Positions 11,369 through 33,334 are shown, counted from the stretch's first letter. The stretch: 64,000 nucleotides of DNA from Armatimonadota bacterium (GCA_037443565.1 JBBIOB010000001.1:97774-161773); one strand, 5' to 3'. The notes: generated by a model from the sequence alone, not told the origin. Program-made: numbers and translations.

Positions 11369-11369
11369 C

Positions 11370-13070: not shown

Positions 13071-13091
13071 TGTCAGGTGGCGCGCAGCCCC

Positions 13092-14323: not shown

Positions 14324-15223
14324 CTACGGCAGGAAGTGCGGCTGCGTCCACGCGACGCCGCCGTTGGACGAGTACACTCTTGCGCGGACGTAGCCCTCGT
14401 CGCCCCGCGGTCGATAAGCCGGATCCAGCCCGCCGACCGTGGCCAGGATCCCGCCGCCTGAGCCGATGAAGTGCGTCGTGTAGCGGTAATTGTGCTCAGG
14501 GGCGATGTGGACCACGATGGCGCCGTCGCGGAACTCGATCTCGCGCAGCGTGACTTCGGTCGACGCGTAGAAGTCGCCGCGCTCCAACGCCCCCAGGACG
14601 GCCGCCGCCGTCTTCTCGCGGGCACGGACGACGACCCAGGCTCCGCCCGGCAGAGAGCGGTGTCCCCAGCAGTCGCCGCGGAAGTGATGCGCGTCGTCGG
14701 CGGCCACCGCCCACACGCGCTGCCCTCTCTCGAGCAGCCGGTCCCACATCTCCTCGACGCCCGGCCGTCCGTCGCCGCCGAAGTTGTTGCTCTCGGTGCT
14801 CGTGTTGAGGATCTCGAGCAGATAGGCGCCGCGCACGGCGCGCATCTCGGCGTCGCCAAACGCCCACCGGTAGTTGGGGTGGTTGACCTGGGGGATGCCT
14901 CCAGCGGCGCGCGCGGCCTCGACCTCGCGCTGCAGCAGCAGCGAGACGGTCTCTTCCCTCGGGAGCTCCGACCGGGCGGCGCTGCCCAGTGAGTTCACGT
15001 GTACCGGCTTCCCCTCGGCGAACAGGCTGATCTCGCACCCCGGGATCAGCAGCAGCGAGTGGTCCGCGCGGTTCCACGCCGTCACGTCCGTCACGGCGTT
15101 GTGGTCGGTGATGGCGAGGAAGTCATAGCCGCGCGCCTGGTACCAGCCCGCGACCTCCTCCAGCGGCGCGTCGCCGTCAGAATTGTTGGTGTGCGCGTGC
15201 GTGTTACCCTTGAGCCACATCAT
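14324..15223 (-). CDS. PHP-domain metal-dependent phosphoesterase
   Basis: About 300 aa from the in-frame Met (MMWLKGNTHAHTNNSDGD...). HxH N-terminal motif and DHN, typical of the polymerase/histidinol-phosphatase (PHP) fold. The long N-terminal extension of the six-frame ORF was rejected (it overlaps the MFS gene). Confidence 0.6.
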   Translation of the reverse strand: MMWLKGNTHAHTNNSDGDAPLEEVAGWYQARGYDFLAITDHNAVTDVTAWNRADHSLLLIPGCEISLFAEGKPVHVNSLGSAARSELPREETVSLLLQREVEAARAAGGIPQVNHPNYRWAFGDAEMRAVRGAYLLEILNTSTESNNFGGDGRPGVEEMWDRLLERGQRVWAVAADDAHHFRGDCWGHRSLPGGAWVVVRAREKTAAAVLGALERGDFYASTEVTLREIEFRDGAIVVHIAPEHNYRYTTHFIGSGGGILATVGGLDPAYRPRGDEGYVRARVYSSNGGVAWTQPHFLP

Positions 15224-16475
15224 TGCGCCGCTCCTGTGGTGGGCGCGCTCGCAGAGGACCCAGCGCCGCGATCCCGGCCAGCGGGCCCAGGGCCAGCAGG
15301 CCAAACGCCCAGCCCCACTGGCCCGAAGCACTGAACCCCAGCGTCTTGCCCAGATCCATCGCCAGGCCGGCCACCGCGGGCGACGCCGCGGTGGCCGCCC
15401 ATCCGAACAGCATCTGGACCGCAAACGCCCCGCCCAAGGAGCGGGGAGGCACCACCTCCATCAGCGCGGCAGTGTACGATGGGGAATCTGCCAGGCTGAC
15501 GGTACCGTAGGCCAGGGCGACCGCTGCGGTGAGCGCGATCGGCGCAGCCACAAGCCATCCAAAGGCCAGCGAGCAGACCAGGCTTGCGGTCAGCATGACG
15601 GTTGCCGCCCGCGCCCGGCCCAGGCGGTCCGAGAGCCGGCCGCCGGCAATCGCGCCGGTCGCGCCTCCCAGGCCAACCGCGCCCGCGGCCAGCAGGCCTC
15701 CCCACGCCAACGCGGCGCCTTCAGGATGCCCGTGGGCCGCGAGCGAGGCGACCATGAACGGTGCGAGCCAGCCCCATAGGCCGAACAACTCCCAGTTGTG
15801 GCCGGTATAGGCCACGATGACCCGACGCGCCGGGACATTCTTCAAGACATCGCCGAGATACCGCGAGAGGGTGGGCGGGCCCGCGGTCGCGGCTGCCGTC
15901 ACGCTGGGGACCCTCCAGGCCATGACGAGGGCGCCCAGTAACTCGAGCACGCCGATCGCGGCCATCGTGGCCCGCCAGCCGATCTGCGGCGCAAGCACGC
16001 CGACATAGAACAGCGGGATGGCGTACGCGGCGACGATTGTGGCGATGTAGATCCCGGTGGCCGCTCCCCGTCCTGCCGCGGGAACGGTGTCGGCAATCTG
16101 CTTCAGTGCCGGAAGGTAGAGGCCGCCGATGAGCACACCGACGAGCAGGCGCAATGCCAGTCCGGAGGCGAAGTCGCGCGCCGCCAGGGCGAAGAGGAGG
16201 TCGCCGAGCCCCACCAGCGCGGCCGACACCACCATGATCGGCTTGCTCCGCATCCGGTCGAGCAGGAAGCCCACGACCACATACGCGGCCAGCGTCCCCA
16301 GCTGAAAAGCCCCCAGGATGATCCCGGCCTGGCTGCTGCTCAGGTGCCACTCGGGCCCGACGACTGGGATGAGCACGGAGAAGGTGAGCCCGGTCTGGTG
16401 GGCCAGGAACTGTCCGATACAGAGGGTTACGAAGCCGGCGGTCCAGCCCCTCCGGCCCGCGGCGGCGTCAGCCAT
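15204..16475 (-). CDS. MFS transporter
   Basis: About 424 aa from the internal Met (MADAAAG...), 12 predicted TM helices, MFS motif region LLDRMRSKP. Its stop overlaps the PHP gene start; its start overlaps the kinase-like gene by 8 bp. Confidence 0.7.
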   Translation of the reverse strand: MADAAAGRRGWTAGFVTLCIGQFLAHQTGLTFSVLIPVVGPEWHLSSSQAGIILGAFQLGTLAAYVVVGFLLDRMRSKPIMVVSAALVGLGDLLFALAARDFASGLALRLLVGVLIGGLYLPALKQIADTVPAAGRGAATGIYIATIVAAYAIPLFYVGVLAPQIGWRATMAAIGVLELLGALVMAWRVPSVTAAATAGPPTLSRYLGDVLKNVPARRVIVAYTGHNWELFGLWGWLAPFMVASLAAHGHPEGAALAWGGLLAAGAVGLGGATGAIAGGRLSDRLGRARAATVMLTASLVCSLAFGWLVAAPIALTAAVALAYGTVSLADSPSYTAALMEVVPPRSLGGAFAVQMLFGWAATAASPAVAGLAMDLGKTLGFSASGQWGWAFGLLALGPLAGIAALGPLRARPPQERRNDVAQG

Positions 16476-17376
16476 TCCCGACCTGCACCAGGTACGCTCC
16501 CAGCCGGGGATCGCCGAGCGCGTCCCGGCAGCGGGCGAAGTGTACCGCGGCGTGCCCCGCGAACTCCGGGAGGGCCGCCGCCAGGTGTTGCGCCACAACG
16601 TACCACATCGCCTCGCGGAGCTCGGCGACGATCTTGAGGAGCCTCAGCCGGGCGAACGCGGCATCCGAGATCTCGCCGAAGTAGGTCCGCAGCAGCGCCT
16701 CATCGGTCTCGTCAGACGGCGAATGGTGAATGGCAAAGTTGGCCAGGTCGAAGAAGACGTCCCCATTCCCGGCGTACTCCCAGTCCACGATCCACGCCCG
16801 GCGGCCGTCATCGATCAGGTTGGGCCCCCAGAGATCGTTGTGACAGGGCCGGTGGGACACGCGGTCTGGGCGCATCGCCGACTCGATGCTGGACAGGGAC
16901 CGGTAGAGAGCGTCGATGTCTTGCGGGAGCGGGGTGTCGAGCCGGCGGGAGACCTCGCGATAGCCCTCCAGCGTCCTGAACGGCGAGAAGGATGTCTCGA
17001 AGGCCGCGCCCTGGTGGCACCGCCGGATCGCCCGGATCACGCGCTCGACCACCTCCGGTCCCGGCGTCTCGCCGGGCGCCAAGTGCCGACCATGGATGAA
17101 CCGCATGACCGACACTCCCAGCTCGGGCAGGAAGCAGACCACTTCCGGGCCGACGCCGGCCTGCCCGGCGGCCAGCGCGCAGCGGTACTCCCGATGGCGG
17201 TCGACGCCCAGCAGGGCGGCGTCCGCCGCGCAGATCCGGACGACGTACGCCTCACCGTCGACGTCGACCCGACAGCTGTAGTTGGTGATCCCGCCGGCCA
17301 GGGGCGAGATCGTCACCGCCTGGGCGTGCTTCCACAGCGGAATGTGGCTCAGCGCCTCGTCGATGGTGAGCGGCAT
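16468..17376 (-). CDS. Choline/ethanolamine kinase-like phosphotransferase, paralog 2
   Basis: 302 aa. HNDLWGPNLI (Brenner motif) and IVDWEYAGNGD. Alignable over the full length with 5817..6719 (LPGGITNLNYRV vs LAGGITNYSCRV; EAYVVRI in both). Confidence 0.7.
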   Translation of the reverse strand: MPLTIDEALSHIPLWKHAQAVTISPLAGGITNYSCRVDVDGEAYVVRICAADAALLGVDRHREYRCALAAGQAGVGPEVVCFLPELGVSVMRFIHGRHLAPGETPGPEVVERVIRAIRRCHQGAAFETSFSPFRTLEGYREVSRRLDTPLPQDIDALYRSLSSIESAMRPDRVSHRPCHNDLWGPNLIDDGRRAWIVDWEYAGNGDVFFDLANFAIHHSPSDETDEALLRTYFGEISDAAFARLRLLKIVAELREAMWYVVAQHLAAALPEFAGHAAVHFARCRDALGDPRLGAYLVQVGNG

Positions 17377-17402
17377 CGGCCGGATCGGGGCCGCGTCCGG
17401 GT

Positions 17403-18188
17403 TTACGTCCCTGCCCGCCGCCGGAGGAACTCGGTCGACATGCCCAGGGCCACGGTGAGGACGATGAAGACGACCGAGATGGCGTTGATGGTGGGCGAGA
17501 GGCCGAGCCTCACCGTGGTGTAGATCTGAATCGGGAGCGTCGTGTCGTTCCCGATGAGGAAGAACGTGGTGTTGAAGTTGTCAAAAGAGAGCAGGAACGC
17601 GACGACGCACGCGGCCACGATGGCGGGACGCAGGTACGGCAGGGTGATGAGGAGCACGGCGCGCAGGGGCGTAGCCCCCAGATCCTGTGCCGCCTCTTCG
17701 AGCGAGCGGTCGAACTTCTGGAGGCGTGCCGAGGCGATGAGCAAGACGAACGACGCGATGAACGATGTCTGACCCAGCACCGCCGTCGGCAGACCGGCCC
17801 GCAGGCCCAGGCTGTCGAAGAAGATCAGCATCGATACCCCCAGGATGACGCCCGGGGTGACCAGCGGCGAGAGTACGAGGGCATAGAGGAGTCCTTTGCC
17901 GGGGAACCGGTACCGCACCAGCAGGAACGCGGTCGTCACACCCAGCGGAATCGAGAGGGCGACCACCGCCAGTCCGACGAGGACGCTGTTGCCCACCGCG
18001 CGGAGCAGCAGCGGGTCCTGGACGATCGCGGCGAACCACTGCAGGGTGAGCCCGCGCCAGGGGAACTGCGGCATGGCGCTGTCGTTGAAGGCGAGCGCGG
18101 CGACCACCGCCAGCGGCACATAGAGATACAGGAGGAAGATGCCCACGTAGAGCAGGGTGGTCACCCGGGCGAGCCACCGCGCCGTCAT
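17403..18188 (-). CDS. ABC permease (PotC/PotI-like)
   Basis: 262 aa from the ATG at 18188 (MTARWLARV...). Six TM helices and an EAA motif region (SLEEAAQDLGATPLR). Confidence 0.8.
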   Translation of the reverse strand: MTARWLARVTTLLYVGIFLLYLYVPLAVVAALAFNDSAMPQFPWRGLTLQWFAAIVQDPLLLRAVGNSVLVGLAVVALSIPLGVTTAFLLVRYRFPGKGLLYALVLSPLVTPGVILGVSMLIFFDSLGLRAGLPTAVLGQTSFIASFVLLIASARLQKFDRSLEEAAQDLGATPLRAVLLITLPYLRPAIVAACVVAFLLSFDNFNTTFFLIGNDTTLPIQIYTTVRLGLSPTINAISVVFIVLTVALGMSTEFLRRRAGT

Positions 18189-19063
18189 GGCGACTGGATC
18201 ACCCTGCGGACCGACAGGCCGAACAGCCGCAGGAGGCCGACCACGAAGAGCAGCGACAGGGCAAGCAGGATGAACGCGAACGCCGAACCGAGATTCCAGT
18301 TCAGCGCGTCGTAGAAGCGACGATAGATGAGCTCGACGAACCAGACCGCCCCGCGGCCCCCCAGGAACGAGGGGACGACAAAGGTCCCGACGCTCAACAT
18401 GAACACCATGATGCCGCCGGCGACCGCCCCGGGCACCACGTGCGGGAGGATGATATGGCGCAGCACCCGCAGGTGGCTGGCCCCCAGATCCTGCGCCGCC
18501 TCGATGAGCGAGGTGTCCAGGCTCTCCAGCACCGCGTACAACGGGAAGATCATGAACAGCATGTACGCGTAGGTCATCCCCAGGATGACCGTCCCATCGC
18601 GGTAGAGGTACGACACCGGCTCGCCGATAAGGCCCAGGGTCCCCAGGATCTGGTTGAACACGCCCTGCTCGGTCAGGATCAGCAGCCAGGCGTAGGTGCG
18701 GACGATCTCGTTGACCCAGAAGGGGATGAGGATGAGGATCAGCAGCCGCCGGCGCCACGACGTCGCGGCCACCTTGGCCAGAATGTACGCGATCGGAAAT
18801 GCGGCCACGAAGGACACCACGGTGACGGCCACGGCCGCGTACAGCGTCTTCACAAAGACTTTCCAGTACAACGGCGTGGTGAAGAAGGCGTGGTAATGGG
18901 TCAGCGTGTGCACGTCCACGGCCGTGCCGACCTGATCGTAGGGCAGCATGAAGCGCAGCGAGAGGTCCAGCATCTTGAGCTGGGGGATGACGAGCAGCAG
19001 GAGGACCCACAGGAGCGCGGGGATGCTGAGCACCGCCACCGCAGCTGCCGTCCGGCCGGACAT
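18185..19063 (-). CDS. ABC permease (PotB/PotH-like)
   Basis: 292 aa. EAA loop LIEAAQDLGASHLRV. 4-bp overlap with the downstream permease. Confidence 0.8.
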   Translation of the reverse strand: MSGRTAAAVAVLSIPALLWVLLLLVIPQLKMLDLSLRFMLPYDQVGTAVDVHTLTHYHAFFTTPLYWKVFVKTLYAAVAVTVVSFVAAFPIAYILAKVAATSWRRRLLILILIPFWVNEIVRTYAWLLILTEQGVFNQILGTLGLIGEPVSYLYRDGTVILGMTYAYMLFMIFPLYAVLESLDTSLIEAAQDLGASHLRVLRHIILPHVVPGAVAGGIMVFMLSVGTFVVPSFLGGRGAVWFVELIYRRFYDALNWNLGSAFAFILLALSLLFVVGLLRLFGLSVRRVIQSP

Positions 19064-20181
19064 CAGGGCTCTCCCTCGGGCAGGGCATAGGCGTCCTCGC
19101 TGGAGAACGTGACCGTCGCCGGTCCCCCCACCGCGGGCAGGACGGTAGTGCCCACATTCGGAACGACTACCGCCATCTGACGGCCGCTGGCTAGCCGCAC
19201 GCGCATCCGAACCACCGGCCCCTCGTAGAAGACCTCCTCAAGCGTCCCCCGCAGGGCGTTGGCGCCTCCGGGGGTCTCGACGCCGGGCTCGTTCCCTGCG
19301 ACACACCGCAGCTTCTCGGGGCGGACGAACACCAGGCCCTGACGGCCGGCCTCGAGCCGTTCGGGGTTCCGGCAGACCAGCCGGCCTTCGGGGGTCTCCA
19401 CGACGACGCGCCCGTCCTCGACCGCGACGGTCCGGCCCGCGATGGCGTTGTTCTCGCCGACGAAGTACGCGACGAACTGCGTCTGCGGCTGCTCATAGAT
19501 CTCCGCCGGCGTGCCGATCTGCTCGATGCGGCCGCGGCTCATCACCGCGACCCGGTCCGACATCGCCAGGGCTTCACCCTGGTCGTGCGTAATGTAGATG
19601 AACGTTGTGCCCACGCGGTGCTGGATGGCCTTGAGCTCTTCCTTCATGTGCTCGCGCAGCTTGAGGTCCAGGGCGCCCAGCGGCTCGTCGAGCAGCAGCA
19701 CGGTCGGCTCGATGATGAGCGACCGGGCGATGGCCACCCGCTGCTTCTCGCCCCCCGACAGCTCATCGACGCGCTTGCTCCCATACCCGGGAAGGTTGAT
19801 GAGGTCGAGCTTGGCCGCCACGCGTGTGGCGATCTCACGCTCGGACACCCCGCGCATCCGCAGGCCGAAGGCGATGTTGTCGTACACGTTCATCAGCGGG
19901 AAGAGGGCGAGGTGCTGGAAGATCAGGCTGGTGGGCCGGCGGTTGGGTGGCACGCCCCGCATCGGCCGGCCGCCGATCAGGATCTCCCCTTCGTCGGGAT
20001 CGATGAATCCCGAGATCATGCGGAGGATGGTGGTCTTGCCGCACCCGCTGGGGCCGAGGATCGAGAAGAACTCGCCTCGGCCCACGTCGAGCGCGACGCC
20101 GGCGACCGCCGTGATATCGTGGTAGCGCTTGGTGACGTTGACGAGCTCGACGTCGACGTCGCGCCGGTGGGGATCGCTCAC
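19063..20181 (-). CDS. ABC transporter ATP-binding protein (PotA-like)
   Basis: Walker A GPSGCGKTT, LSGGEKQRV, LLLDEP, ITHDQ. C-terminal TOBE-like domain. Confidence 0.85.
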   Translation of the reverse strand: MSDPHRRDVDVELVNVTKRYHDITAVAGVALDVGRGEFFSILGPSGCGKTTILRMISGFIDPDEGEILIGGRPMRGVPPNRRPTSLIFQHLALFPLMNVYDNIAFGLRMRGVSEREIATRVAAKLDLINLPGYGSKRVDELSGGEKQRVAIARSLIIEPTVLLLDEPLGALDLKLREHMKEELKAIQHRVGTTFIYITHDQGEALAMSDRVAVMSRGRIEQIGTPAEIYEQPQTQFVAYFVGENNAIAGRTVAVEDGRVVVETPEGRLVCRNPERLEAGRQGLVFVRPEKLRCVAGNEPGVETPGGANALRGTLEEVFYEGPVVRMRVRLASGRQMAVVVPNVGTTVLPAVGGPATVTFSSEDAYALPEGEP

Positions 20182-20232
20182 AGGACACCGGATGGGAACC
20201 GGGGAGGCGGCGGAGCCGCCTCCCCGGTGATA

Positions 20233-21426
20233 CTAGGCCGCCTTCAGCCGGTCCACGTACCCGGCGAACATATTCAGCCACCAGGTGTGCTCGATGCCGT
20301 ACCACCAGAGGTTCCTGATGTCCTCGGGCGTGAACGACTCCTCGTACTGCTTCTTGATCGCCGGATCGAGGTGCGCCGCGGCGCCGTCGATAGCCGTGAA
20401 GTAGCCGCTCTCTTTCGTGAACAACGCCGCGTTGCTCGGATCGTACATGAAGTTCATCCACGCGTAGGCGGCGTCGAGGTTCGTCGCGCCCCTGGGGATG
20501 GCGAAACCGTCCATCCAGGTCATGGCGCCTTCCTTGGGAGCCACGAACTTGATGTCATGCCCGGCGCGGTCGAGCTTCCAGCCGGTGCCGTCCCAGGTCT
20601 GCGCGATCCACACCTCTTCCGTGGTGAGGAGCTTCTCGATCTCAGCGGCCGTGGCCCAGTAGGTCTTCACGTTCTTCTTCTTGCTGATGAGGAAGGCGAG
20701 AATCCGGTCGAGGATCGGCCGGGCCCTCTCCTCGCTCACGTAGACGTCGCGCATGCGGTTCCCCAGCCCCATCCACAGGCCGGTCGAGACGAACACGTGG
20801 AAGGTCGCCCGATAGGCCACCCGCCCGGCGAACTGATCCTGGTGGACCGAGCCGTACGAAGTCGGCCGGCGGGGAATCCTGAAGGTGTTGTGGGAGATCC
20901 CTTCGGTGCCCCAGTCGAAGGGGAGCCCGTACCGTCTGCCCCTCGACATGCCGCCGAGGTCCTCGGAGGCCTTGACCATGCTGGGAATCAGGTTCCTGAA
21001 GTTGGGGATTCGCCGTTCGTCAACCGTCTGGTAGAGGTTGAAGTCGAGCGCGGCCGGAATCAAGGTGACCGAGGGCTGGACCAGATCGTAGCCGGTGGCG
21101 CGCGTGGCCCTGAGCTTGCTGATCAGCTCGCCGTTACTGGCGTAGTAGGTGACCCGCACACTGTAGCCGGTCTCCTGCTCGAACTTCCTGACCAGGGGGG
21201 TCGGCGCGTAGCCTTCCCAGGTGAACAGGTTCAGCGTCCTGGCCGGCGCGGACTGCACCCGCTCCGGCCACGCGAGCGTTCGGCCCAGCACCGCCGCCGC
21301 GCCCGAGGCCAGGCCGGCCTTGAGCACGGTCCGCCGGGAGAGCTTGGCTTCCAGAGATCTGGAGCCATAGATGCCATCGGACATGATCCCACCCCATTCC
21401 CGGATGAGCTGCCGTGCACCTGTCAA
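20233..21426 (-). CDS. Periplasmic polyamine/amine-binding protein (PotD/PotF family) with a Tat-type signal
   Basis: 397 aa; SRRTVLKAGLASGAAAVLG is twin-arginine-like; PotD/PotF-like fold length and composition. The true start may be the internal Met at about 21384. Confidence 0.7.
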   Translation of the reverse strand: MTGARQLIREWGGIMSDGIYGSRSLEAKLSRRTVLKAGLASGAAAVLGRTLAWPERVQSAPARTLNLFTWEGYAPTPLVRKFEQETGYSVRVTYYASNGELISKLRATRATGYDLVQPSVTLIPAALDFNLYQTVDERRIPNFRNLIPSMVKASEDLGGMSRGRRYGLPFDWGTEGISHNTFRIPRRPTSYGSVHQDQFAGRVAYRATFHVFVSTGLWMGLGNRMRDVYVSEERARPILDRILAFLISKKKNVKTYWATAAEIEKLLTTEEVWIAQTWDGTGWKLDRAGHDIKFVAPKEGAMTWMDGFAIPRGATNLDAAYAWMNFMYDPSNAALFTKESGYFTAIDGAAAHLDPAIKKQYEESFTPEDIRNLWWYGIEHTWWLNMFAGYVDRLKAA

Positions 21427-21483
21427 CGCAGGTTCCTTCTTCGCGTTCTGCCATGATGCTCCTTCACCAGGCCGACGGGGCGG

Positions 21484-22158: not shown

Positions 22159-22175
22159 GGTCTCCTCCACGGCTG

Positions 22176-23549
22176 TTACCGGAGCGGCAGCCCGAGCCGT
22201 CGCAGATCTTCCTTGGCCTCGGCGTAGACAGCGTAGTGCTGCGGCGTAGGAGTCAGCGTGTCCAGATTGTAGCAGTCCTGGAACCGGTACCCTTCGGGCG
22301 GGTTGTCCAGGTGCGACTCGTACCGGGCGAGCAGCGTTGTGACGATCTCGTTGGCCTCCCGCCGGCCGAGCCCCGCGGCCGCGTGGGCTACCTCGCAGGC
22401 GAACCGCATCTCCATGGGGCTGTAGTTGTCCAACAGGACGCCCTTCGCCGGATGGACCGTCTCGATGTTGGCGCCCGAGACGACGTCGGTGATGATGCGG
22501 GCCGCGGTCTCGTCGTAGAGCTGCGGCGTGGCGGTGCCCGCGGCGGCGTACCCCAGGTCGAAGTACGGGAACCGCATGTTGCGGCTCACGGCCTGGCAAC
22601 CCAGGGCCACGCTGGTCAGCATCTCGCGCGCCGTGGAGTTGGACTGCTGGATGTGGAGCGAGTACAGTAGGTGGTAGGTGGCGCCGACCAACAGCGGCCC
22701 GGCCATGATGTACGCGGCATTGAGCACCGCCGAGCCGATCACCCCTCCGGCGAACCCGCCGTAGATGGCGCCGGCGGCGAACCCCACGTTGCCGCCGAAC
22801 GACAGGACGGCGGCCGTCTTGTTCATCACGTTGTAGTCCAGTTTCATCTCCGACAGTGACACGATCAACCATCCGTCGGAGGGGCGCAGGCCGTATTCGG
22901 AATTCGTGACGGCGAGCACCCCCATCGGCGAGGCCGAGCTGGAGAGCAGGTTGATGATCGGCAGGCCCGGCCTACCGGCGCGGCGCATGGACTCCCGCCC
23001 CAGGCGCACCGACTGGATGGCGGCGTAGATCTCCGACGGCGCGCCCGCCTGCACTGGCATCCCGCGAATCTGGGTCAGCGCCGGGATGCTCATGGAGTCG
23101 GCGTGCGGGATCCGCGCGTAGCCTTCCACCACGGCCGAGGCGATCTCGTCCGACGACACCGGGATGCCGCCGCCGACATGACACCAGGGAATCTGGGAGT
23201 CCTCGGGCCGGCGGGGCCGCATGAACTTCGCCTCTTTGCCTTCGCCCAGCGGACACTGCGTCGGCGCCAGGTGGATCGCCTCGTCGAGCTCTTCCCGCGA
23301 GAAGGTGATGACCCGGTTGGTGTCCGGGCAGTATGCGCCCGTCTCCACCAGGAAGTCGCCGGCGGCCAGAAAGATCCGATCGGCCAGATCGTCGTCCCAG
23401 GGGATGACGACATCCCTGGGTGGCGCGGTGAGCCCATGCTTCTTGATCGCCTTCTGGAGGTTTGGGACGAACCGCTGCATGTCGAAATCGTCGGGTGCGA
23501 CGATCGGTCCCATCGCCGCGCGCCGGCAGATCTCCAGGAAGCTCACCAT
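22176..23549 (-). CDS. MtmB-family methyltransferase (monomethylamine methyltransferase homolog) WITHOUT the pyrrolysine codon
   Basis: 457 aa, length matches archaeal MtmB (458 aa). Aligns by eye over the full length to M. barkeri MtmB: YCPDTNRVITFSREELDEAI vs YCTDTHRIVKYTEDEIWDAI; RRAGRPG vs AMAGRPG; C-terminus YRFQDCYNLDTLTPTPQHYAVYAEAKEDLRRLGL vs KTFQECYDVKTVTPTEEYMQVYDGARKKLEDLGL. At the Pyl position (MGV-O-GPE in MtmB) this protein reads LPIINLL with no in-frame TAG. RBS AAAGGAG lies 7 nt before the ATG at 23549. Confidence 0.8.
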   Translation of the reverse strand: MVSFLEICRRAAMGPIVAPDDFDMQRFVPNLQKAIKKHGLTAPPRDVVIPWDDDLADRIFLAAGDFLVETGAYCPDTNRVITFSREELDEAIHLAPTQCPLGEGKEAKFMRPRRPEDSQIPWCHVGGGIPVSSDEIASAVVEGYARIPHADSMSIPALTQIRGMPVQAGAPSEIYAAIQSVRLGRESMRRAGRPGLPIINLLSSSASPMGVLAVTNSEYGLRPSDGWLIVSLSEMKLDYNVMNKTAAVLSFGGNVGFAAGAIYGGFAGGVIGSAVLNAAYIMAGPLLVGATYHLLYSLHIQQSNSTAREMLTSVALGCQAVSRNMRFPYFDLGYAAAGTATPQLYDETAARIITDVVSGANIETVHPAKGVLLDNYSPMEMRFACEVAHAAAGLGRREANEIVTTLLARYESHLDNPPEGYRFQDCYNLDTLTPTPQHYAVYAEAKEDLRRLGLPLR

Positions 23550-23570
23550 GGCTGGCTCCTTTCGTCTCTG

Positions 23571-24503
23571 TCAGGTGCGACGCCTGCGCACCGCCGCGGC
23601 GATGAGCCGGATGTGCTCGGGCGTGCTGCCGCAGCAGGCACCGACGATGTTGGCCCCGGCGTCGAGGATCGCGGGATACGCCCCTGCCATCGCCTGAGGC
23701 GACAGGTCGTACACGGTGCGATCGTCCACGATCTTGGGCATCCCGGCGTTGGGATACGCCGCCAGCCGGCCGGAGGTTACCCCCCGCATCTCCCGGATGA
23801 TGACCGCGGCGCGGACCGGACCGCCCTCCCCGCAGTTGCAGCCCACGATGTCCGCGCCCGCGTCGAACAGCAGCCGTGCGACGTCCGTCGGCGTCGAGCC
23901 CCACAGCGTCCGGTCTATGCCCTTCCGGGCGCTATACTGGAAGAACATCGTGGCCATCACGGGCAGGTCGGCGGCGGACTTCGCGGCCTTGATGGCGGTC
24001 ACGACCTCATCGGGGACCATCATCGTCTCCACGGCGAAGAGGTCTACGCCGCCCTCGGCCAGCGCAACGGCCTGCTCGGTGAAGTTGGCGCGCATCTCGT
24101 CCAGCGAGGTGTCGCCCATTGCCGCGAGCGTGTCGGGGAGATGCCCTGTCGGTCCGATCGACCCTGCCACGTACTTCCCCGGTGGGCAGACGGCGCGCGC
24201 CAGGCGCGCGGCCATGATGCTCAGGTCGCGCGCCCGTCCCTGCAGCTCGTAGGGCGCCAGCTTGAGGCGTGTGCCGCCGAACGTATTCGTCTCGACGATG
24301 TCGGCGCCGGCGTCGAAGTAGGCCCGGTGAATGCCGGAGACCACCTCGGGGTGGGTTTCGTTCCACAGCTCCGGGCAGGCGCCATCGACGAGGCCGGCCT
24401 CGAACAGCATCGTGCCCATGGCGCCGTCGAGGACCAGCACCTCGGAGGTCAACCGGTCGAGCAGCTCGCGCCCTCTCGGATGCATATCCCGTCCCTCACT
24501 CAA
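23571..24503 (-). CDS. Homocysteine/thiol S-methyltransferase domain protein (MetH Hcy-binding module as a separate protein)
   Basis: 310 aa. N-terminal VLVLDGAMGTML, zinc-ligand motifs GCNCG and GACCGSTPEHI as in the MetH/BHMT Hcy-binding barrel. Confidence 0.75.
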   Translation of the reverse strand: MSEGRDMHPRGRELLDRLTSEVLVLDGAMGTMLFEAGLVDGACPELWNETHPEVVSGIHRAYFDAGADIVETNTFGGTRLKLAPYELQGRARDLSIMAARLARAVCPPGKYVAGSIGPTGHLPDTLAAMGDTSLDEMRANFTEQAVALAEGGVDLFAVETMMVPDEVVTAIKAAKSAADLPVMATMFFQYSARKGIDRTLWGSTPTDVARLLFDAGADIVGCNCGEGGPVRAAVIIREMRGVTSGRLAAYPNAGMPKIVDDRTVYDLSPQAMAGAYPAILDAGANIVGACCGSTPEHIRLIAAAVRRRRT

Positions 24504-26355
24504 ACCGTAACGCCGTCAGAAACGCGTCCTGGAACTCAGGATGCGTTGCCAGCGAAACGTGTCTGATCTGTCCGGCCAGCGCGTCGGCGCGCCGGCGCTC
24601 GGTCTCGGAGACCAGGGCCATCTGCGCGCCCAGGCCCGCGGCGTTGCCGACGTAGCTCACGCGGTCGGCCGGCATCCGCGGGATGAGGCCGATTCGAATC
24701 GCGCTGCGGATGTTCAGGTAGTTGCCGAATCCGCCGGCCAGCATCAGCTCCGCGAGGTGATCCGCGGGTGTGCCGCTCAGGCGCTGCAGCATCGCGAGCC
24801 CGCTTCGGATCGCGCCCTTGGCGAGCTGCACCTGGCGGATGTCCGCCTGCGTCAGGACGATGTCCCTGCCCGTGGCGCTCTGGGACCCGGGCGCCAGGAC
24901 AAACGCTGGGAGCCCGTCGGGCAATGTGATGATGCGGCGGCGCAGCGCGTCAGGCACGGCTCCGGACGGCTCGGGGTGCAGCCGGCCTGTGGCGTCCACG
25001 ACCCCCGCGTCGAGCAGGCCGGCGATCGCATCGAGGATCCCCGAGCCACACACCCCCAGGGGTGATCCCGCGCCGATCACGTGGGAATCCACATCCTGCT
25101 CGATGCGGACCTGATCGATGGCGCCCCGGGCGGCGCGCATGCCGCACTGGAGCTGTGCACCTTCCAGCGCGGGTCCCGCAGGAGCCGAGCAGGCCGTCAG
25201 GCCGTCCGTGGACGCGAGGACCATCTCGCCGTTCGTGCCGATGTCCACGGCGATCCGGGGTTCGCGGCTCTCGTCGAGCCGGGTGGACAGGACCATGCCC
25301 ACGGCATCCGCGCCCACGAAGCCCGCCACGATGGGCAGCAGGAAGATGGGCGTCGGCGGACGCAGGCGCAGCCCCACCTCGGCGGCGGTGACTTTGACGC
25401 TCCGCCGGACGGCGGGCGCATACGGCGCCTGACCGACATAGGTGGGGTCGATGCCCAGGAAGAGGTGATGCATCACCGTGTTCCCCACGACGACGCCCTT
25501 GTAGATACGATCGCGATCGACGCCGGCCCTGGCGCACGCGTCCTCGATCTGCTCGTTCAGCATCCGGATGATACGGGTGTGGAGCTGACGAACGTTCGAT
25601 GGGCCTTCCTGCGCGAAGGCGATCCGTGACATCAGGTCGCCGCCGAAGGCCGCCTGAGCGTTGAGGCCGGATGCGGTGGCCGCCACGACCCCGCTCGCCA
25701 GATCCACCAGATACCCGACAACCGTCGTCGTGCCGATGTCAAAGGCGATGCCGTAGGCCTCGGCACGAGTGTCCCCGGGTTCGGCGGCCAGCAGCGTGCG
25801 GTTGAAGCGCGCCAGGGTGAAGCCGGCGGGCTGCGATCGCAGCAGCAACGGGATGCGCCGGAGCGCCTCGAGGGACGCGTCGGCCACCTCCCCCTCGAGG
25901 CGGCGCAGCACCGCTTCCAGGTCCGAGTCGGGGCGATCCTCGTCGGACGGTGGCAACGCGGTGACGAACATCTTGTGCACACCTGAATCCAGGGTGAACC
26001 CCGCCGCCGAGCGCAGCGTCCGGGTCTCGGCCAGGATCTGAAACGCGGTCTCTTCGAAGATCGGCGCGGCCGCGACCGTCAGATCGCCCCAGGCTTCGGT
26101 CTGGCAGGCCAGGCGGTAGCGCTCTCTTACCTCGTCGTCGCCGAGTTGGATCCGGTCGGCCAGCCCGGCCGGCGGCGGGTTTCCGGCGACGATCTGCACC
26201 CGGCAGCTCCGGCAGCGGCCGCGCGCCCCGCAGGTCGCCACGATCTCGCACCCAGCCTGCTGCGCCGCCTGGAGGATCGTCGTGCCCACGGGCACATGCA
26301 CCCGGTATCCGTTGGGCGCAAACACGACGGTGACCGTGGTGCCGGTCATGGCCAT
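24496..26355 (-). CDS. RamA/RACo-like reductive activator of corrinoid proteins (N-terminal 2Fe-2S ferredoxin plus ASKHA ATPase domain)
   Basis: 619 aa. N-terminal plant-type ferredoxin motif CGARGRCRSCRV, then a large actin-like ATPase region (DIGTTTV..., DIGTNGE...) as in COG3894 activators. Confidence 0.7.
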   Translation of the reverse strand: MAMTGTTVTVVFAPNGYRVHVPVGTTILQAAQQAGCEIVATCGARGRCRSCRVQIVAGNPPPAGLADRIQLGDDEVRERYRLACQTEAWGDLTVAAAPIFEETAFQILAETRTLRSAAGFTLDSGVHKMFVTALPPSDEDRPDSDLEAVLRRLEGEVADASLEALRRIPLLLRSQPAGFTLARFNRTLLAAEPGDTRAEAYGIAFDIGTTTVVGYLVDLASGVVAATASGLNAQAAFGGDLMSRIAFAQEGPSNVRQLHTRIIRMLNEQIEDACARAGVDRDRIYKGVVVGNTVMHHLFLGIDPTYVGQAPYAPAVRRSVKVTAAEVGLRLRPPTPIFLLPIVAGFVGADAVGMVLSTRLDESREPRIAVDIGTNGEMVLASTDGLTACSAPAGPALEGAQLQCGMRAARGAIDQVRIEQDVDSHVIGAGSPLGVCGSGILDAIAGLLDAGVVDATGRLHPEPSGAVPDALRRRIITLPDGLPAFVLAPGSQSATGRDIVLTQADIRQVQLAKGAIRSGLAMLQRLSGTPADHLAELMLAGGFGNYLNIRSAIRIGLIPRMPADRVSYVGNAAGLGAQMALVSETERRRADALAGQIRHVSLATHPEFQDAFLTALRFE

Positions 26356-26379
26356 CGACTCGGGAGGATCATGGATCGG

Positions 26380-27009
26380 TCAGGCATCAGCACGGGAGGC
26401 CGGGATCAGGCCGTAGATCCCGGTGATGGACTTCCGCGGCAGCATCACACATGACTCGGTCAGGTGCACCGACAGGTCGCCGCCTGCAAACGTCGAGAAC
26501 AACACTCGCTGCTGGTCCAGGGGCCAGTCCGCAAAGCCCGGCGCTGTGCGCCCGGTCAGGCGTAGCCCGCGTGCGGCGGCCTCGGCCCGCAGCCTGTCCC
26601 GCAGCTGCCCGGTCAGCGCCTCCAGCGCGACCCATCCCGCTGTGTCGAGCAGTAGCCCGTCGGCGAATTGTTCCTCCGCAATCAACGCCTGTACGCGGCC
26701 TTCCAGCGCCGGTCCAATGGTCAGGATGACGAGCACGGCCTCAGTGGCGTCATGGAGGAGCCGTGCCAGGGCGCGGCTGGTGAACTCGGTCCCGTCGGCC
26801 AGGCGCACGCAGCCGTCGGGTTCGGCGCGGCTCACCGGTTCCCGCCGCATCCACCCGCGCGGCACCACCAGCGCCTCGGCCAGCGATGCCATCCGGCGCG
26901 CCGTCTCACTGACGACCGGGGCGATCCTGTCAAGATCCCGGTACTTCTGCAGCCGCAGGATGAGATCCGGATCCACGCGCGGCCGTTGGAGGTCCAGATT
27001 CTCGACCAT
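26380..27009 (-). CDS. Methionine synthase reactivation (AdoMet-binding) domain homolog, standalone
   Basis: 209 aa. C-terminal APGFADWPLDQQRVLF...LTESCVMLPRKSITGIYGL parallels E. coli MetH RPAPGYPACPEH...LTESFAMWPGASVSGWYF. Confidence 0.6.
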   Translation of the reverse strand: MVENLDLQRPRVDPDLILRLQKYRDLDRIAPVVSETARRMASLAEALVVPRGWMRREPVSRAEPDGCVRLADGTEFTSRALARLLHDATEAVLVILTIGPALEGRVQALIAEEQFADGLLLDTAGWVALEALTGQLRDRLRAEAAARGLRLTGRTAPGFADWPLDQQRVLFSTFAGGDLSVHLTESCVMLPRKSITGIYGLIPASRADA

Positions 27010-27012
27010 GGC

Positions 27013-27888
27013 TCAGCCTGACGACCGCGGGCCTCCTCCTGCCGCTCTGGCCGCCGGCGGCGTCTTCATGAAGTCTAACGTCCCGGCGCGCACGCCGGCC
27101 AGGTAGCGGCGGCAGAACTCGTCCTGCCCTAGCAGCATCTGGGCCGTGGTCAGGTTGGCCATCAGCCTCCGGTCGAGCGGATCGAGGATGAACGCGTCCA
27201 TGCCGTGCGCCATACACAGGACGAGGAACACCTGATTGATCTGGGCGCGATAGGGCAGCCCGAACGAGACGTTGCTGAGCCCGCAGATCGTCCGCACCTC
27301 GGGAAACCGCGCCTTGATCAGGTCCAGCGCCCCCAGGAAGACCACGGCAGACCGGCTGTCCGTCGCGATGGGGAACAGCAGCGGGTCGACGAGGATGTCG
27401 TGCGGCGGCACCCCGACCGCGGTGAGGCCATCGATCAGCCTGGACGCGAACTCCAGCTTGCCCGCGGCCGTGGACGGAATCCCCTGGTCGTCCATGCACA
27501 GGGCCACGACCTCCGGCTGGAACTCCTGGATCACCGGCAGGAGGGCCGCCCACCGGTCCTGCTCCAGGTTGATCGAGTCCAGCAGGGCCTTGCCCCGGTG
27601 CACCTCGAGGCCCCGGCGCAGCGCGATCGGGTTGGGGCTGTCGATGCTGATCCGCACGTCGAGGGCGTCCTGGATGGTCCGCACGGCCCACTCCATGCAC
27701 GCGACCTCGTCCTCCATCAACGTCGCGCAGTTGACATCCACCAGGTGCGCGCCGGCCTCGACCTGCCGCCGGGCGAGATCGACGATGGCTGCGGCATCGC
27801 GGGCTTCCAGCAGCGGCTGGATCTGCTTGCGGGTGGAGTTGATGAGCTCGCCGACGATCAGCGTGGCCGGTCCTCCGGATGTCTTCCA
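27013..27888 (-). CDS. Methyltetrahydrofolate:corrinoid methyltransferase (pterin-binding MeTr/MtrH/MetH folate module); start codon unresolved
   Basis: TLIVGELINSTRKQIQ...EAGAHLVDVN is the canonical pterin-binding (DHPS-like) barrel N-terminus. No ATG/GTG/TTG lies in frame between the upstream gene stop (27858) and the domain start. The only in-frame starts are over 150 nt upstream, inside the MetF-MetV gene. GGAGGA plus a 9-nt spacer precedes a CTG at about 27864. Confidence 0.6.
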   Translation of the reverse strand, partial: WKTSGGPATLIVGELINSTRKQIQPLLEARDAAAIVDLARRQVEAGAHLVDVNCATLMEDEVACMEWAVRTIQDALDVRISIDSPNPIALRRGLEVHRGKALLDSINLEQDRWAALLPVIQEFQPEVVALCMDDQGIPSTAAGKLEFASRLIDGLTAVGVPPHDILVDPLLFPIATDSRSAVVFLGALDLIKARFPEVRTICGLSNVSFGLPYRAQINQVFLVLCMAHGMDAFILDPLDRRLMANLTTAQMLLGQDEFCRRYLAGVRAGTLDFMKTPPAARAAGGGPRSSG

Positions 27889-29444
27889 GACACCATTTCC
27901 AACCTCACCAGTCGCATGCCTCCTCCTTGGAAGTGGGTGACCCAGGAGCAGGTGTTCCGGCTCTCTTCGGGGACCGGAGGGATCAAGACCTCTTCCAGGT
28001 CGGCCAGCCGGCCGGCCTTCCTGGACAGACGGTAGATCCCGTTGTGGATGCACTCCCGATCGCCGAACTCGCAGATGCCGTCGTGCGTGCCGCCGCACGG
28101 TCCGTTCGCCAGTCCCTTCGGACAGGTCTCCGGGCAGACGTACGCGGTGGCCGGGAGCCGGCAGGAGCCGCACCCCCGGCAGCCGACCAGCGGGCGTTTG
28201 ATCGCCAGCTCAAGCATGAGCAGGAACCCGTCCGACCCGAACCGGGCGCCGAGCCCCCGGACCAAAGGCCCCACCACGCGCGCGCCCGGTGAGCCGTCGT
28301 GGAAGGCGAGACGGTCGACCAGGTCCAGCGCGCGGAACCGCAGCGACTCGCCGAGTCTTGGGCCGATATTGCCGTCGAGCGTGCCCGCATCCAGGTACAG
28401 ACCGTGCTCGGGCGCGACCTGCGCCTGCCGGTCATCGGCGAATGTCAGCGCCCGCCGCCAGGCCCTCTGCCAGTCCTCGAGGGTCGGGCATTCCGTCGCG
28501 ACGCCGTCGACCGTGTCGAGCAGCCGGGCGACCTTCGAATAGGTGTGAAGGCCGCTGATCTGCGCCCCGGCATAGCCCATCAGACGCGCGCCCACCACCT
28601 GCAGCGCCAGACGTCGGTACGCCGCATCCCGGCCACTGTCGGGCGCGCGCGACTCTTCCTCGAGCTTCTCGGCCAGGTCATTGGTGATCGTCACGCCGGG
28701 CAGGCCCACCTGACGGATGCGACGGCACCGGCCGGGCGTGAGGAAGAGCAATCCCGCCAGTAGCGGGGCGGGATATCCCCGGCCGGCGAGGACCCGGCGC
28801 GCCTCCTCAAGCTTGCACATGTCCCAGCCGATCTGCGTGACCAGGAAGTCGGCGCCCGCCCGCAGCTTCTTGCCTGCCTTGAGGTACTGATTCAGCAGGT
28901 CTTCTTCACGGTACTTGAATGGACAGACCGCCGCGGCCAGAAGACAGGCGCCGGAGTGCTGTCGGGCGGCCCGAAGGGCGTGCACCGAGTCCAGATACCG
29001 CACCGGCCGGTCGGCGGGCGGCGCCTTCAGGCCGTCTCCGGTGACGAGCAGGAACGTGTCGAGCCCCAGCGCTCCGGCCCGCCGCAGGTGCTCCTCCAGG
29101 TTGTGCAGGCTGCGATCCTTGCCGGCCAGGTGGACGATCGGCATCGCACCGGAGACCTCCAGGACCCTGTGGCCGATCGCGACCGGATCGTGGTCGTGGT
29201 CGGATCGGCTGCGGTCGGTCAGGGCGAGCGCGGCGATCCTGGGGTCACCTCGGATCGCCTTTGCCAGGGCAAGGATGGGCGCCACGGCGCCGTCGAAGGG
29301 CTCGCTCGCCACCGGCGACGCGTACTCGATCGTGATCGCGAACCGGCCGGCGGCCAGCGCCGCGCACAAGCGGTGGGTGCCCGCCTGCCGGAGCACGTCG
29401 CTCATCTGGGACGTAACGTACGGAGGGGGCGATACCCGGGGCAA
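27858..29444 (-). CDS. Methylenetetrahydrofolate reductase MetF domain fused to an MTHFR C-terminal (MetV-like, Cys-rich) domain
   Basis: 528 aa. N-terminal FAITIEYASP and the MTHFR barrel. C-terminal CRGCGSCRLPATAYVCPETCPKGLANGPCGG is the MetV-type zinc-ribbon domain. The start may be the internal Met at 29402. Confidence 0.7.
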   Translation of the reverse strand: MPRVSPPPYVTSQMSDVLRQAGTHRLCAALAAGRFAITIEYASPVASEPFDGAVAPILALAKAIRGDPRIAALALTDRSRSDHDHDPVAIGHRVLEVSGAMPIVHLAGKDRSLHNLEEHLRRAGALGLDTFLLVTGDGLKAPPADRPVRYLDSVHALRAARQHSGACLLAAAVCPFKYREEDLLNQYLKAGKKLRAGADFLVTQIGWDMCKLEEARRVLAGRGYPAPLLAGLLFLTPGRCRRIRQVGLPGVTITNDLAEKLEEESRAPDSGRDAAYRRLALQVVGARLMGYAGAQISGLHTYSKVARLLDTVDGVATECPTLEDWQRAWRRALTFADDRQAQVAPEHGLYLDAGTLDGNIGPRLGESLRFRALDLVDRLAFHDGSPGARVVGPLVRGLGARFGSDGFLLMLELAIKRPLVGCRGCGSCRLPATAYVCPETCPKGLANGPCGGTHDGICEFGDRECIHNGIYRLSRKAGRLADLEEVLIPPVPEESRNTCSWVTHFQGGGMRLVRLEMVSGRHPEDRPR

Positions 29445-30725: not shown

Positions 30726-30880
30726 GAACTGGCAGCATCGTACCACATCTCCGCGCCCATCTGCCCGGCCCGGGGACACCTGGCGGCGCCCCCGGTCCCT
30801 TGGACGGGCTATTGTTGCGGCGCGCGGCCTCCCTGTACAGTGGGGTGGGTCGAAGGAGTAGACGACGCAGAGGAGGATCC

Positions 30881-33328: not shown

Positions 33329-33334
33329 CGGTCC

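Follow-up and report, generated by a model that had tools for sequence, protein, structure and literature searches.

A predicted corrinoid-dependent quaternary-amine demethylation system around a non-pyrrolysine MtmB homolog in an uncultured hot-spring bacterium

Introduction

What compound is taken up and demethylated through a compact set of corrinoid, transporter and kinase genes in an uncultured hot-spring bacterium? The question is raised by a string of 15 genes that runs on the minus strand from position 29444 to 14324 of a 64,000-nucleotide stretch of DNA (Armatimonadota bacterium, GCA_037443565.1, JBBIOB010000001.1:97774-161773); this whole stretch is called the window below and supplies all coordinates unless another locus is named. 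The string contains a homolog of the methyltransferase MtmB that lacks pyrrolysine (Pyl). Such non-Pyl MtmB homologs make up a large orphan family with one demonstrated function: a recent tree holds 1,061 of them, and the only characterised one, MtqB of Methanococcoides methylutens Q3c, whose function was demonstrated in 2026, demethylates tetramethylammonium and choline together with MtqC (PMC13044021). The present locus provides a complete and compact bacterial context for this family, in which all partners can be identified, and the host phylum is uncultured but enrichable (PMC11604079).

The string very probably encodes a corrinoid-dependent quaternary-amine demethylation system of split methionine synthase (MetH) design, with linked genes for uptake and modification. 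In the full model that we favour, at a probability of roughly 0.45, it would carry out uptake and the first demethylation within a catabolic island that degrades an N-trimethylated two-carbon head-group amine, with choline, demethylated after its phosphorylation, as the favoured substrate. What the locus itself shows is the order of its genes, the families to which they belong, their catalytic motifs and their conserved linkage.

The methyltransferase module

The MtmB homolog (22176..23549, on the minus strand like all string genes), a predicted substrate:corrinoid methyltransferase, matched PF05369 over its full length (positions 4-450 of the 450 in the profile; E 2.7e-86), and its residues 9-454 aligned with MtmB1 of Methanosarcina barkeri, a TIM barrel (PDB 1L2Q, E 1.6e-56). 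Its reading frame is uninterrupted, with no in-frame stop, and the position of pyrrolysine-202 is taken by Ile199, as in 13 of 13 close-clade sequences; the other 66 homologs have Met, Leu, Gly or Ile there. By these two properties, the protein is a homolog of MtmB without Pyl. Throughout the 79 non-Pyl homologs, E205, E229 and E324 of the Pyl enzyme are replaced, and R222 and R323 are nearly invariant. In the published MtmB structure, these positions would line the active-site pocket; if this placement is true, R222 and R323 would favour a quaternary amine with a negative charge, for example phosphocholine, above choline itself.

In their source annotations, homologs of this protein bear the public label "monomethylamine:corrinoid methyltransferase", and the end-to-end Pfam match would agree with a genuine monomethylamine methyltransferase system. 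We regard this as highly improbable: the gene has no in-frame amber codon and Ile replaces Pyl, the three glutamates of the Pyl enzyme are lost, the protein matches no NCBIfam model, no tRNA gene and hence no tRNA-Pyl was found in the 64-kb window, and even MtqB shows only trace monomethylamine activity (PMC13044021). Public labels of this kind overstate methylamine use in metagenome surveys.

The gene of a corrinoid protein similar to MtmC and MtgC (Corr, 21484..22158; PF02310, PF02607; 200 bits with TIGR02370) lies 17 bp downstream of the MtmB homolog, and its product bears the His-on motif DVHSIG (DxHxxG). On the upstream side, there are genes for two candidate methyl-acceptor enzymes. One is a homocysteine-binding S-methyltransferase resembling MetH module 1 and MtgE (HcyMT, 23571..24485; PF02574, E 1.4e-68), whose best PDB matches are the homocysteine domains of MetH (160 bits) and whose zinc-ligand cysteines are found in GCNCG and ACCG; the other is a methylcorrinoid:tetrahydrofolate (THF) methyltransferase of the MeTr/MtgA/MtgD kind (PterinMT, 27013..27861; PF00809; NCBIfam NF005719 at 311 bits against a cut-off of 259). 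Between them lie the genes of a RACo-type ATP-dependent corrinoid activator with a 2Fe-2S domain (24496..26355; PF14574, PF17651, PF17650 and PF00111; 408 bits with an AcsV-like NCBIfam model) and of a 209-residue protein (Small, 26380..27009) that resembles a stand-alone MetH reactivation domain. The latter has weak matches to PF02965 (E 2.3e-4) and, over 125 residues, to TM0269 of T. maritima (PDB 1J6R, E 0.0045), and it is kept in relatives at 57-71% identity. The first gene of the string encodes a MetF-MetV fusion (MetFV, 27858..29444; the MTHFR domain PF02219 and a C-terminal domain, PF12225), which the related loci L004 and L010 have too, as do two of the kinase loci, L066 and L068; L001-L072 are labels of loci in other genomes that were compared with the window.

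As read from the sequences, the four modules of cobalamin-dependent methionine synthase appear here as separate proteins around the MtmB homolog, and the module would be a split methionine synthase that can hand methyl groups to homocysteine as well as to THF. A preliminary description of the string, made from its sequence, had recognised a corrinoid methyltransferase module with MetF-MetV, and the domain matches agree with that assignment at the family level.

Gene order and expected transcription

Genes were called from third-codon-position GC and domain searches, the window having about 69% G+C and lists of open reading frames crowded with spurious frames. In the coding frame, the third-position GC reaches 0.83-0.98 for each string gene, and both kinds of evidence place all string genes on one strand, as previously described. 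Start-codon analysis of the string gave gaps of 3-57 bp and five overlaps. Starting from the upstream end, MetFV and PterinMT overlap by 4 bp, and gaps of 3 bp (PterinMT/Small) and 24 bp (Small/RACo) follow; RACo and HcyMT have either an 8-bp overlap or a gap of 10 bp, and 21 bp separate HcyMT from the MtmB homolog. The largest gap, between Corr and the binding-protein gene of the importer (PotD), is 57 bp with TTG 21426 as the start or 99 bp with ATG 21384, the start in the public gene call. Further downstream there are gaps of 51 bp (PotD/PotA) and 26 bp (PotC/kinase Kin), and overlaps of 1 bp (PotA/PotB), 4 bp (PotB/PotC, 18185-18188), 8 bp (Kin/MFS transporter, 16468-16475) and 17-20 bp (MFS/PHP hydrolase, 15204-15223). 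The preliminary description had named the last three overlaps, all of which are present, and gaps of 0-55 bp; its tight packing stands, but its upper bound is too low, as the largest gap may be 99 bp. It had also closed the string at 14324, where the PHP gene does end, but the same-strand run goes on after a 206-bp gap with a second ABC importer as far as 10217.

Where its homologs start, the PterinMT gene has no ATG, GTG or TTG; its start codon is instead a CTG within the sequence CTGA, whose last three letters are the MetFV stop, with the Shine-Dalgarno sequence GGAGGA 9 nt upstream (junction at 27858-27876). The L004 locus (4860-4870) has an identical junction of CTG and MetFV stop, and relatives without MetFV upstream have ATG at the equivalent codon. 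The overlap of the CTG start with the MetFV stop suggests translational coupling and hence co-transcription of at least MetFV and PterinMT. A consensus promoter scan found none, terminator-like sites were not above those in shuffled sequence, and no signal came from folding of the 206-bp spacer (z = -0.04) or from a repeat search in the spacers; an Rfam scan of the whole window found no element, riboswitches for cobalamin, THF or SAM included. A single long transcription unit is plausible in this genome but is not a conserved property of the system.

The gene of a LuxR/GerE-type regulator (29475..30779, minus strand; PF00196 GerE at the C-terminus, E 1.8e-16; likely start ATG 30725) lies directly upstream on the same strand, as had been stated, with 30 bp between its stop at 29475 and the MetFV start at 29444. 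Homologs with 56-65% identity occupy the same position in relatives. The gene also contains a 52-nt direct repeat (30265-30316 and 30523-30574, 71% identity, 258 nt apart), which represents a duplicated motif of ~86 amino acids in the N-terminal region; that region is without a Pfam domain.

Transporters, kinase and hydrolase

For the accessory genes of the string, domain matches bear out the earlier family-level calls of a PotABCD-type importer, a kinase-like phosphotransferase, an MFS transporter and a PHP-type metallohydrolase. The importer comprises a PotD/PotF-fold solute-binding protein with a TAT signal (20233..21426, PF13416, TAT_signal; alternative start as above), a PotA-like ABC ATPase (19063..20181, PF00005 and TOBE_2), a PotB-like permease (18185..19063, PF00528) and a PotC-like permease (17403..18188, PF00528). 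The binding protein scored 105 and 98 bits with the PotD and PotF equivalog models, whose cut-offs are 582 and 636, so that it is an equivalog of neither, and ~100 bits with PotD and PotF structures.

Kin (16468..17376) is a phosphotransferase of the choline/ethanolamine-kinase family (PF01636; PF01633 at 44 bits against a cut-off of 29). Its nearest structures are PDB 3DXQ, a choline/ethanolamine-kinase-family protein, and LicA, and it has the Brenner motif HNDLWGPN and the choline-kinase-like motif WIVDWEY. A paralogous kinase encoded elsewhere in the window, Kin2, also carries Brenner and choline-kinase-like motifs, and for the two kinases together the closest structures are again a protein of the choline/ethanolamine-kinase family and LicA. 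The best curated NCBIfam match of both Kin and Kin2 is the guanitoxin kinase GntI, at 225 and 272 bits, below its cut-off of 357. Kin is followed by an MFS transporter (15204..16475; PF07690, E 2.9e-36), with which it is always paired.

The last gene of the string (14324..15223) had been described as a PHP phosphoesterase. Its product belongs to the CehA/McbA family (NF038032, 104 bits against a cut-off of 80), scores 25.0 bits with PF02811, just under the cut-off of 26.4, and has the HxH motif GNTHAHTNNSDGD. By its matches, it is better described as a CehA/McbA-family PHP-fold metallohydrolase that may act on a phosphoester or on some other bond, the phosphoesterase role being a prediction. 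The second ABC importer, beyond the 206-bp gap (ABC2, 10217..14117, minus strand), is made up of a phnS2-like binding protein (265 bits with TIGR03261 phnS2, below the cut-off of 393), a fused permease and an ATPase, the whole being recognised by Pfam matches. Importers similar to ABC2 adjoin MtmB homologs in L017, L024, L028 and L054.

The divergent arm

The string is only half of a divergon, and the preliminary description had missed the other arm (30881-37109, plus strand). This arm consists of a flavoenzyme gene of the dimethylglycine dehydrogenase/dimethylglycine oxidase (DMGDH/DMGO) kind (DMGDH1, 30881-33328), a HemL-like class-III aminotransferase gene (AT3, 33329-34657) and a second DMGDH-like gene (34647-37109). 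Both flavoenzymes have the Pfam domains DAO, FAO_M and GCV_T, and DMGDH1 can be aligned over its entire length with DMGDH as well as with dimethylglycine oxidase, the scores being 528-560 bits (560 bits for DMGO, 1PJ5). A DMGDH-like gene is likewise divergent from the regulator in L001-L002, L004 and L006, and it lies inside the operon, directly upstream of the MtmB gene, in L011 and L012. For quaternary amines there is no known FAD enzyme (PMC10590968), and the simplest reading would therefore be that the corrinoid system takes the first methyl and the flavoenzymes the second and third, giving three demethylases for three methyls.

The best matches of AT3 include the GSA-aminomutase family and the guanitoxin transaminase GntE (286 bits, cut-off 525), both below cut-off. 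A housekeeping HemL was ruled out by its score of 344 bits against a cut-off of 527 and by its catabolic neighbours. On re-scoring of neighbour genes, close AT3 homologs were found only in L006, L015 and L054; an apparent presence in 23 loci was an artefact of the first clustering, which lumped class-III aminotransferases together, most of them PbfA-like. Two stand-alone contexts of AT3 (L070, L071) were uninformative. Given the matches of Kin and Kin2 to GntI and of AT3 to GntE, the guanitoxin enzymes may derive from a catabolic gene set resembling this island.

Conservation and shuffling in related genomes

We compared the window with a tblastn synteny table of 63 loci and with gene maps. 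The MtmB homolog belongs to a tight clade of 85-94% identity, whereas all others are at most 50% identical; the named members of the clade are Ca. Fervidifonticultor (phylum Ca. Sysuimicrobiota, CSP1-3), represented by hot-spring metagenome-assembled genomes (MAGs). A core order of LuxR-(MetFV-PterinMT)-Small-RACo-HcyMT-MtmB-Corr is conserved in 12 or more related loci. The accessory genes follow it in varying arrangements. Thus, Kin-MFS-PHP comes after Corr in L004, L065 and others; the complete order in L065 is Corr-PF13769-Kin-MFS-PHP-(amidotransferase-like GATase)-ALDH2, and subsets of it are found in L004, L010 and L013. At least 8 other loci also have Kin paired with the MFS gene, with MFS homologs of 65-80% identity directly after Kin in L013 and L065-L068. 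The PHP homologs follow Kin/MFS in L004, L065 and L069 and adjoin MtmB paralogs in L019, L023, L025 and L030. The pairing of kinases with transporters is consistent, Kin going with the MFS transporter and Kin2 with an ABC importer. Most relatives lack PotDABC. L069 has orthologs of PotD-A-B-C (70-77% identity; PotD 70%) followed by a paralogous kinase on the opposite strand, next to MtmB-Corr; these orthologs ruled out the idea that PotABCD is a window-specific insertion. In addition, L065 has an OpuAC-type (quaternary-amine) ABC importer nearby.

Several members of the set are displaced in the window: Kin2 (5793-6719, plus strand), a small protein of family PF13769 ("Virulence_fact"; 7543-7812, minus), the aldehyde dehydrogenase ALDH2 (7815-9239, minus) and a class-I glutamine-amidotransferase-like gene (9333-10205, plus). 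For both aldehyde dehydrogenases (ALDHs) of the window, betaine-aldehyde dehydrogenase is among the top matches, below cut-off. Altogether, the accessory genes appear as a recurrent set whose order is shuffled among genomes, which supports functional coupling. The shuffling also means that a single long operon characterises this genome and not the system.

Could the string nevertheless be a head-to-tail array of unrelated operons, namely a split methionine synthase, a polyamine importer and a resistance-like cassette of kinase, MFS transporter and hydrolase? The accessory modules do vary, with DHDPS and luciferase-like genes in place of the kinase in L001; PotDABC homologs went undetected in all 63 loci of the first synteny table; some members of the APH family are antibiotic kinases; and the PotD region has a slightly lower GC content (0.65). 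Against this, Kin, Kin2, MFS, PHP, PotDABC, the amidotransferase-like gene, ALDH2, DMGDH-like genes and MetFV recur by the core in shuffled order, a signature of functional coupling, the gaps are tiny with five overlapping junctions, and the kinases carry choline-kinase motifs. We therefore consider unrelated operons very unlikely.

In genomes without MtmB, a gene with GCV_T as its only domain (DmdA-like, 392-399 amino acids) occurs in a GCV_T-Kin-MFS-MetFV operon (L066:7785-12765, L067:9001-13226 and L068:7782-12663), with DMGDH-like, ALDH2, amidotransferase-like and Kin2 genes nearby; the operons have gaps of at most 38 bp and overlaps. The L068 operon adjoins genes for a glycerophosphodiester phosphodiesterase (GDPD), glycerol kinase, glycerol-3-phosphate dehydrogenase and glycine cleavage. 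The GCV_T-only protein is of the aminomethyltransferase/GcvT fold, to which the dimethylsulfoniopropionate demethylase DmdA also belongs. As judged from its context, this operon is apparently a non-orthologous replacement of the first demethylase that fits a choline-type substrate; a DmdA-type enzyme would yield methyl-THF, which would explain MetF-MetV in both types of cluster.

Many distant loci have two to four tandem MtmB paralogs, with or without MttB, and no DMGDH gene; these would be a strictly anaerobic version of the same three-methyl arithmetic. Tandem sets of two to four paralogs are seen in L014, L019, L023, L024 and L026, sometimes with one or two non-Pyl MttB genes, and a single corrinoid-protein gene accompanies them in L019, L023, L024 and L026, consistent with one paralog per methyl.

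Other genes were noted around the island. The PF13769 gene directly follows Corr in ten close-clade loci (by tblastn) and in L065 and L069 (by Pfam), and this conserved pairing suggests a role in the methyltransferase system; in the window it is 14 kb from Corr, behind ALDH2. A PEMT-family (phospholipid N-methyltransferase-like) gene at 1949-2554 (minus strand), with a counterpart at L069:16108-16587, indicates that the organism may make N-methylated phospholipid head groups, a possible source of substrate. Finally, a GCS2/YbdK-like carboxylate-amine ligase and an SDR dehydrogenase are encoded at 50252-52466 (plus strand), and L066 has the same pair together with amidotransferase-like and ALDH genes, a set that resembles a gamma-glutamylation route for an amino-alcohol (ethanolamine to glycine).

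The phosphonate link

By its gene content, the region at 37888-49696, beyond the divergent arm, is an aminophosphonate catabolic region. It comprises, on the minus strand, PhnW (37888 to about 39000; 548 bits against a cut-off of 296), a phnS2 ABC importer (39024-43105; binding protein 445 bits against 393), an ALDH (43106-44575), a citryl-CoA-lyase-like gene (44576-45493) and CoA-transferase A/B (45430-47174), and on the plus strand a LysR regulator (47229-48320) and PbfA (48350-49696; 713 bits against 525). The window showed neither PhnX nor PhnA. In L039, L045 and L014, PhnW/MtmB are joined by pairs of citryl-CoA-lyase-like genes and by an acylating aldehyde dehydrogenase similar to SauS, an association that hints at an undescribed fate for phosphonoacetaldehyde or phosphonoacetate.

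A similar neighbourhood recurs in distant relatives of the MtmB homolog. Of 50 distant MtmB-homolog loci, 16 have PhnW equivalogs (480-508 bits) and/or PbfA (66-75% identity to the window PbfA) no more than 10 kb away (L039:8744-17133, L045:3626-13139, L047:7275-12313, L026:996-12165, L017, L020, L022-L025, L027, L034, L040, L048, L059 and L061). The phosphonate-linked MtmB homologs come from MAGs of Planctomycetota, Chloroflexota and Desulfobacterota, and the phosphonate genes are often in one operon with MtmB, such as PhnW-PbfA-MtmB in L047 (PbfA 711 bits), PhnW-MtmB-MtmB in L039, and L026. In the literature searched we found no report of a link between MtmB homologs and phosphonates, and nothing relevant on this cluster type or on methylated-amine metabolism in Sysuimicrobiota; the phosphonate association of the orphan enzyme family is thus unreported in that literature.

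These data raise the alternative that the system acts on an aminophosphonate bearing N-methyl groups, chiefly N,N,N-trimethyl-2-aminoethylphosphonate (trimethyl-AEP), from which the corrinoid system would remove the first methyl and the DMGDH-like enzymes the other two, AT3 or PhnW then giving phosphonoacetaldehyde. In addition to the distant operons, it would account for the PhnW, PbfA and phnS2 binding protein of the window, all above their cut-offs, for the phnS2-like importer directly downstream of the PHP gene and for an AT3 homolog (77% identity) in a PbfA/phnS2 cluster (L072); moreover, no flavoenzyme is known for quaternary amines, and trimethyl-AEP has a single known route, which depends on an oxygenase (PMC10590968). 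However, PhnW and PbfA are missing within 10 kb in close relatives of the window MtmB clade, which have kinase, MFS and OpuAC genes instead, a phosphonate substrate leaves the kinases nothing obvious to phosphorylate, and the phosphonate genes of the window are 8-20 kb away in their own operons. Nor does a neighbour-joining tree of 79 homologs put the window clade within the phosphonate-linked clades or assign it to any context-defined group. Trimethyl-AEP is a serious candidate for the string, if a less likely one than choline. If it were the substrate, the system would fill a gap, as no trimethyl-AEP route is known beyond the oxygenase and none for anoxic habitats (PMC10590968).

A broader version joins the two head groups. 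The family context makes it conceivable, if doubtful, that the non-Pyl MtmB homologs, this one included, are corrinoid enzymes for the oxygen-independent N-demethylation of 2-aminoethyl-phosph(on)ate head groups, namely trimethyl-AEP and phosphocholine, feeding 2-aminoethylphosphonate (AEP) or its hydroxylated form HAEP to PhnW and PbfA, with the kinase making the phosphate analogue from choline. Trimethyl-AEP differs from phosphocholine only by the absent ester oxygen. One enzyme family could plausibly serve both, the kinase being needed only for the alcohol. This would provide a function for the orphan family and link B12-dependent methylotrophy to the phosphonate cycle.

Predicted pathway and choice of substrate

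In the full model with choline, the PotABCD-like ABC system, the MFS transporter or both would bring the substrate into the cell, and the choline-kinase-family enzyme would phosphorylate it, in the favoured case from choline to phosphocholine. The MtmB homolog would then move one N-methyl to the Co(I) corrinoid protein, and methyl-Co(III) would be discharged by two routes: the MeTr-like enzyme would pass the methyl to THF, MetF-MetV oxidising methyl-THF to methylene-THF, and the MetH-type homocysteine module would make methionine by methylating homocysteine. Oxidised cobalt would be re-reduced with the help of RACo and the MetH-activation-like protein. The tertiary amine left by the corrinoid step would be demethylated twice by the two divergent DMGDH-like flavoenzymes, with use of their folate-binding GCV_T domains, and the aminotransferase and an aldehyde dehydrogenase would dispose of the primary amine; at some stage the PHP hydrolase would take off the phosphate. 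The preliminary description had proposed uptake, phosphorylation and corrinoid demethylation in outline. This logic has a published precedent in the phosphocholine system MthK/MthB/MthC/MthA (PMC12155760) and is retained as favoured, but the phosphonate alternative now stands beside it.

The flavoenzymes and ALDHs also lend themselves to another substrate, glycine betaine, which would either be imported as such or arise from choline through a dehydrogenase and ALDH2. In that case the role of MtgB or BHMT would fall to the MtmB homolog, the DMGDH-like enzymes would be true dimethylglycine and sarcosine dehydrogenases leading to glycine, and the kinase, MFS transporter and PHP hydrolase would serve something else. 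The end-to-end alignments of DMGDH1, the likeness of both ALDHs to betaine-aldehyde dehydrogenase (below cut-off), the OpuAC-type importer in L065, the glycine-cleavage genes beside the L068 cluster and the split-MetH plus MetF2 architecture known from Ruegeria are all in line with it, and the invariant Arg residues could bind a carboxylate. It leaves unexplained, though, Kin, Kin2, MFS, PHP, the amidotransferase-like gene and AT3, the most consistently linked accessories, with Kin lying inside the tightly packed GCV_T-Kin-MFS-MetFV operons; furthermore, the known corrinoid methyltransferases for glycine betaine all belong to the MttB superfamily and not to the MtmB family (PMC13080624, PMC12155760). 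Glycine betaine, too, is a serious candidate, if a less likely one than choline.

The choline model meets difficulties of its own. The known substrates of DMGDH/DMGO-family enzymes are dimethylglycine and sarcosine, a point in favour of glycine betaine. MtqB acts on choline directly, so that family precedent does not require a kinase (PMC13044021), and the best curated match of Kin is GntI, below cut-off, and not a choline kinase. The PotD-fold binding protein is of the polyamine/phosphonate class and not of the OpuAC class typical for choline; distant MtmB-like and AT3 homologs are embedded in phosphonate clusters; and we found no precedent for AT3 acting on phosphoethanolamine or ethanolamine. 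Finally, a kinase and a phosphatase in one operon would need distinct substrates, as they would otherwise form a futile cycle. With these points counted, choline or phosphocholine as the substrate is given a weight somewhat short of an even chance. All substrates, the order of the steps and co-transcription are predictions for this one locus, and every substrate assignment draws on family and context. If the kinase-first model is true, the strategy of phosphorylating choline and then demethylating it evolved twice, with unrelated methyltransferase folds.

Comparison with known systems

Each part of the string has counterparts in described systems. Similar to MtqB/MtqC, it has a non-Pyl member of PF05369 beside its cognate corrinoid protein, and a quaternary-amine donor is expected; this likeness rests on the family and on the published description of MtqB. 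The host here is a bacterium (Sysuimicrobiota), the predicted acceptors are THF and homocysteine, whereas that of the MtqB system is coenzyme M, and a kinase, a PHP hydrolase, DMGDH-like enzymes and MetF-MetV are added. The invariant Arg residues suggest an anionic substrate here, whereas the MtqB site is described as rich in sulfur and aromatic residues.

In Eubacterium limosum, MthK, reported to be only ~19% identical to LicA, phosphorylates choline, and the MttB-family enzyme MthB then demethylates phosphocholine (PMC12155760). The string shares with the MthK/MthB/MthC/MthA set a kinase gene beside the corrinoid genes, a MeTr-like THF methyltransferase (NF005719) and, by prediction, an anionic handle before demethylation. 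It differs in its substrate enzyme, which is of the MtmB family (PF05369) and not of the MttB superfamily (PF06253), no MttB gene being found among the annotated window genes, in the predicted removal of further methyls by the DMGDH-like enzymes, in its dedicated hydrolase and in its host, a hot-spring facultative anaerobe rather than a gut acetogen.

The split methionine synthase/MtgBCDE glycine-betaine system with MetF2 of Ruegeria pomeroyi and Phaeobacter inhibens (PMC12478193) resembles the string in its separate homocysteine-, pterin- and cobalamin-binding proteins, a reductive activator, a dedicated MetF paralog and methyl transfer to THF or methionine. Its substrate module is MtgB of the MttB family, whereas here it is MtmB-type; the activator here is RACo-type, and a MetH-activation-like protein (with weak matches) stands in place of DUF1638, for which there was no match among the string proteins. 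Moreover, the parts that are scattered in Ruegeria are all in one operon here. The importer, in turn, has the make-up of PotABCD and PotFGHI, with a binding protein of PotD/PotF fold, a TOBE-domain ATPase and two permeases, but its binding protein scores ~100 bits where the cut-offs are 582-636, and its partners are kinases and demethylases, not polyamine enzymes. As far as families and gene order indicate, the string thus combines features of MtqBC (the enzyme family), MthKBCA (kinase first, THF as acceptor) and MtgBCDE with MetF2 (split MetH, dual acceptors), and would be a full member of none of them.

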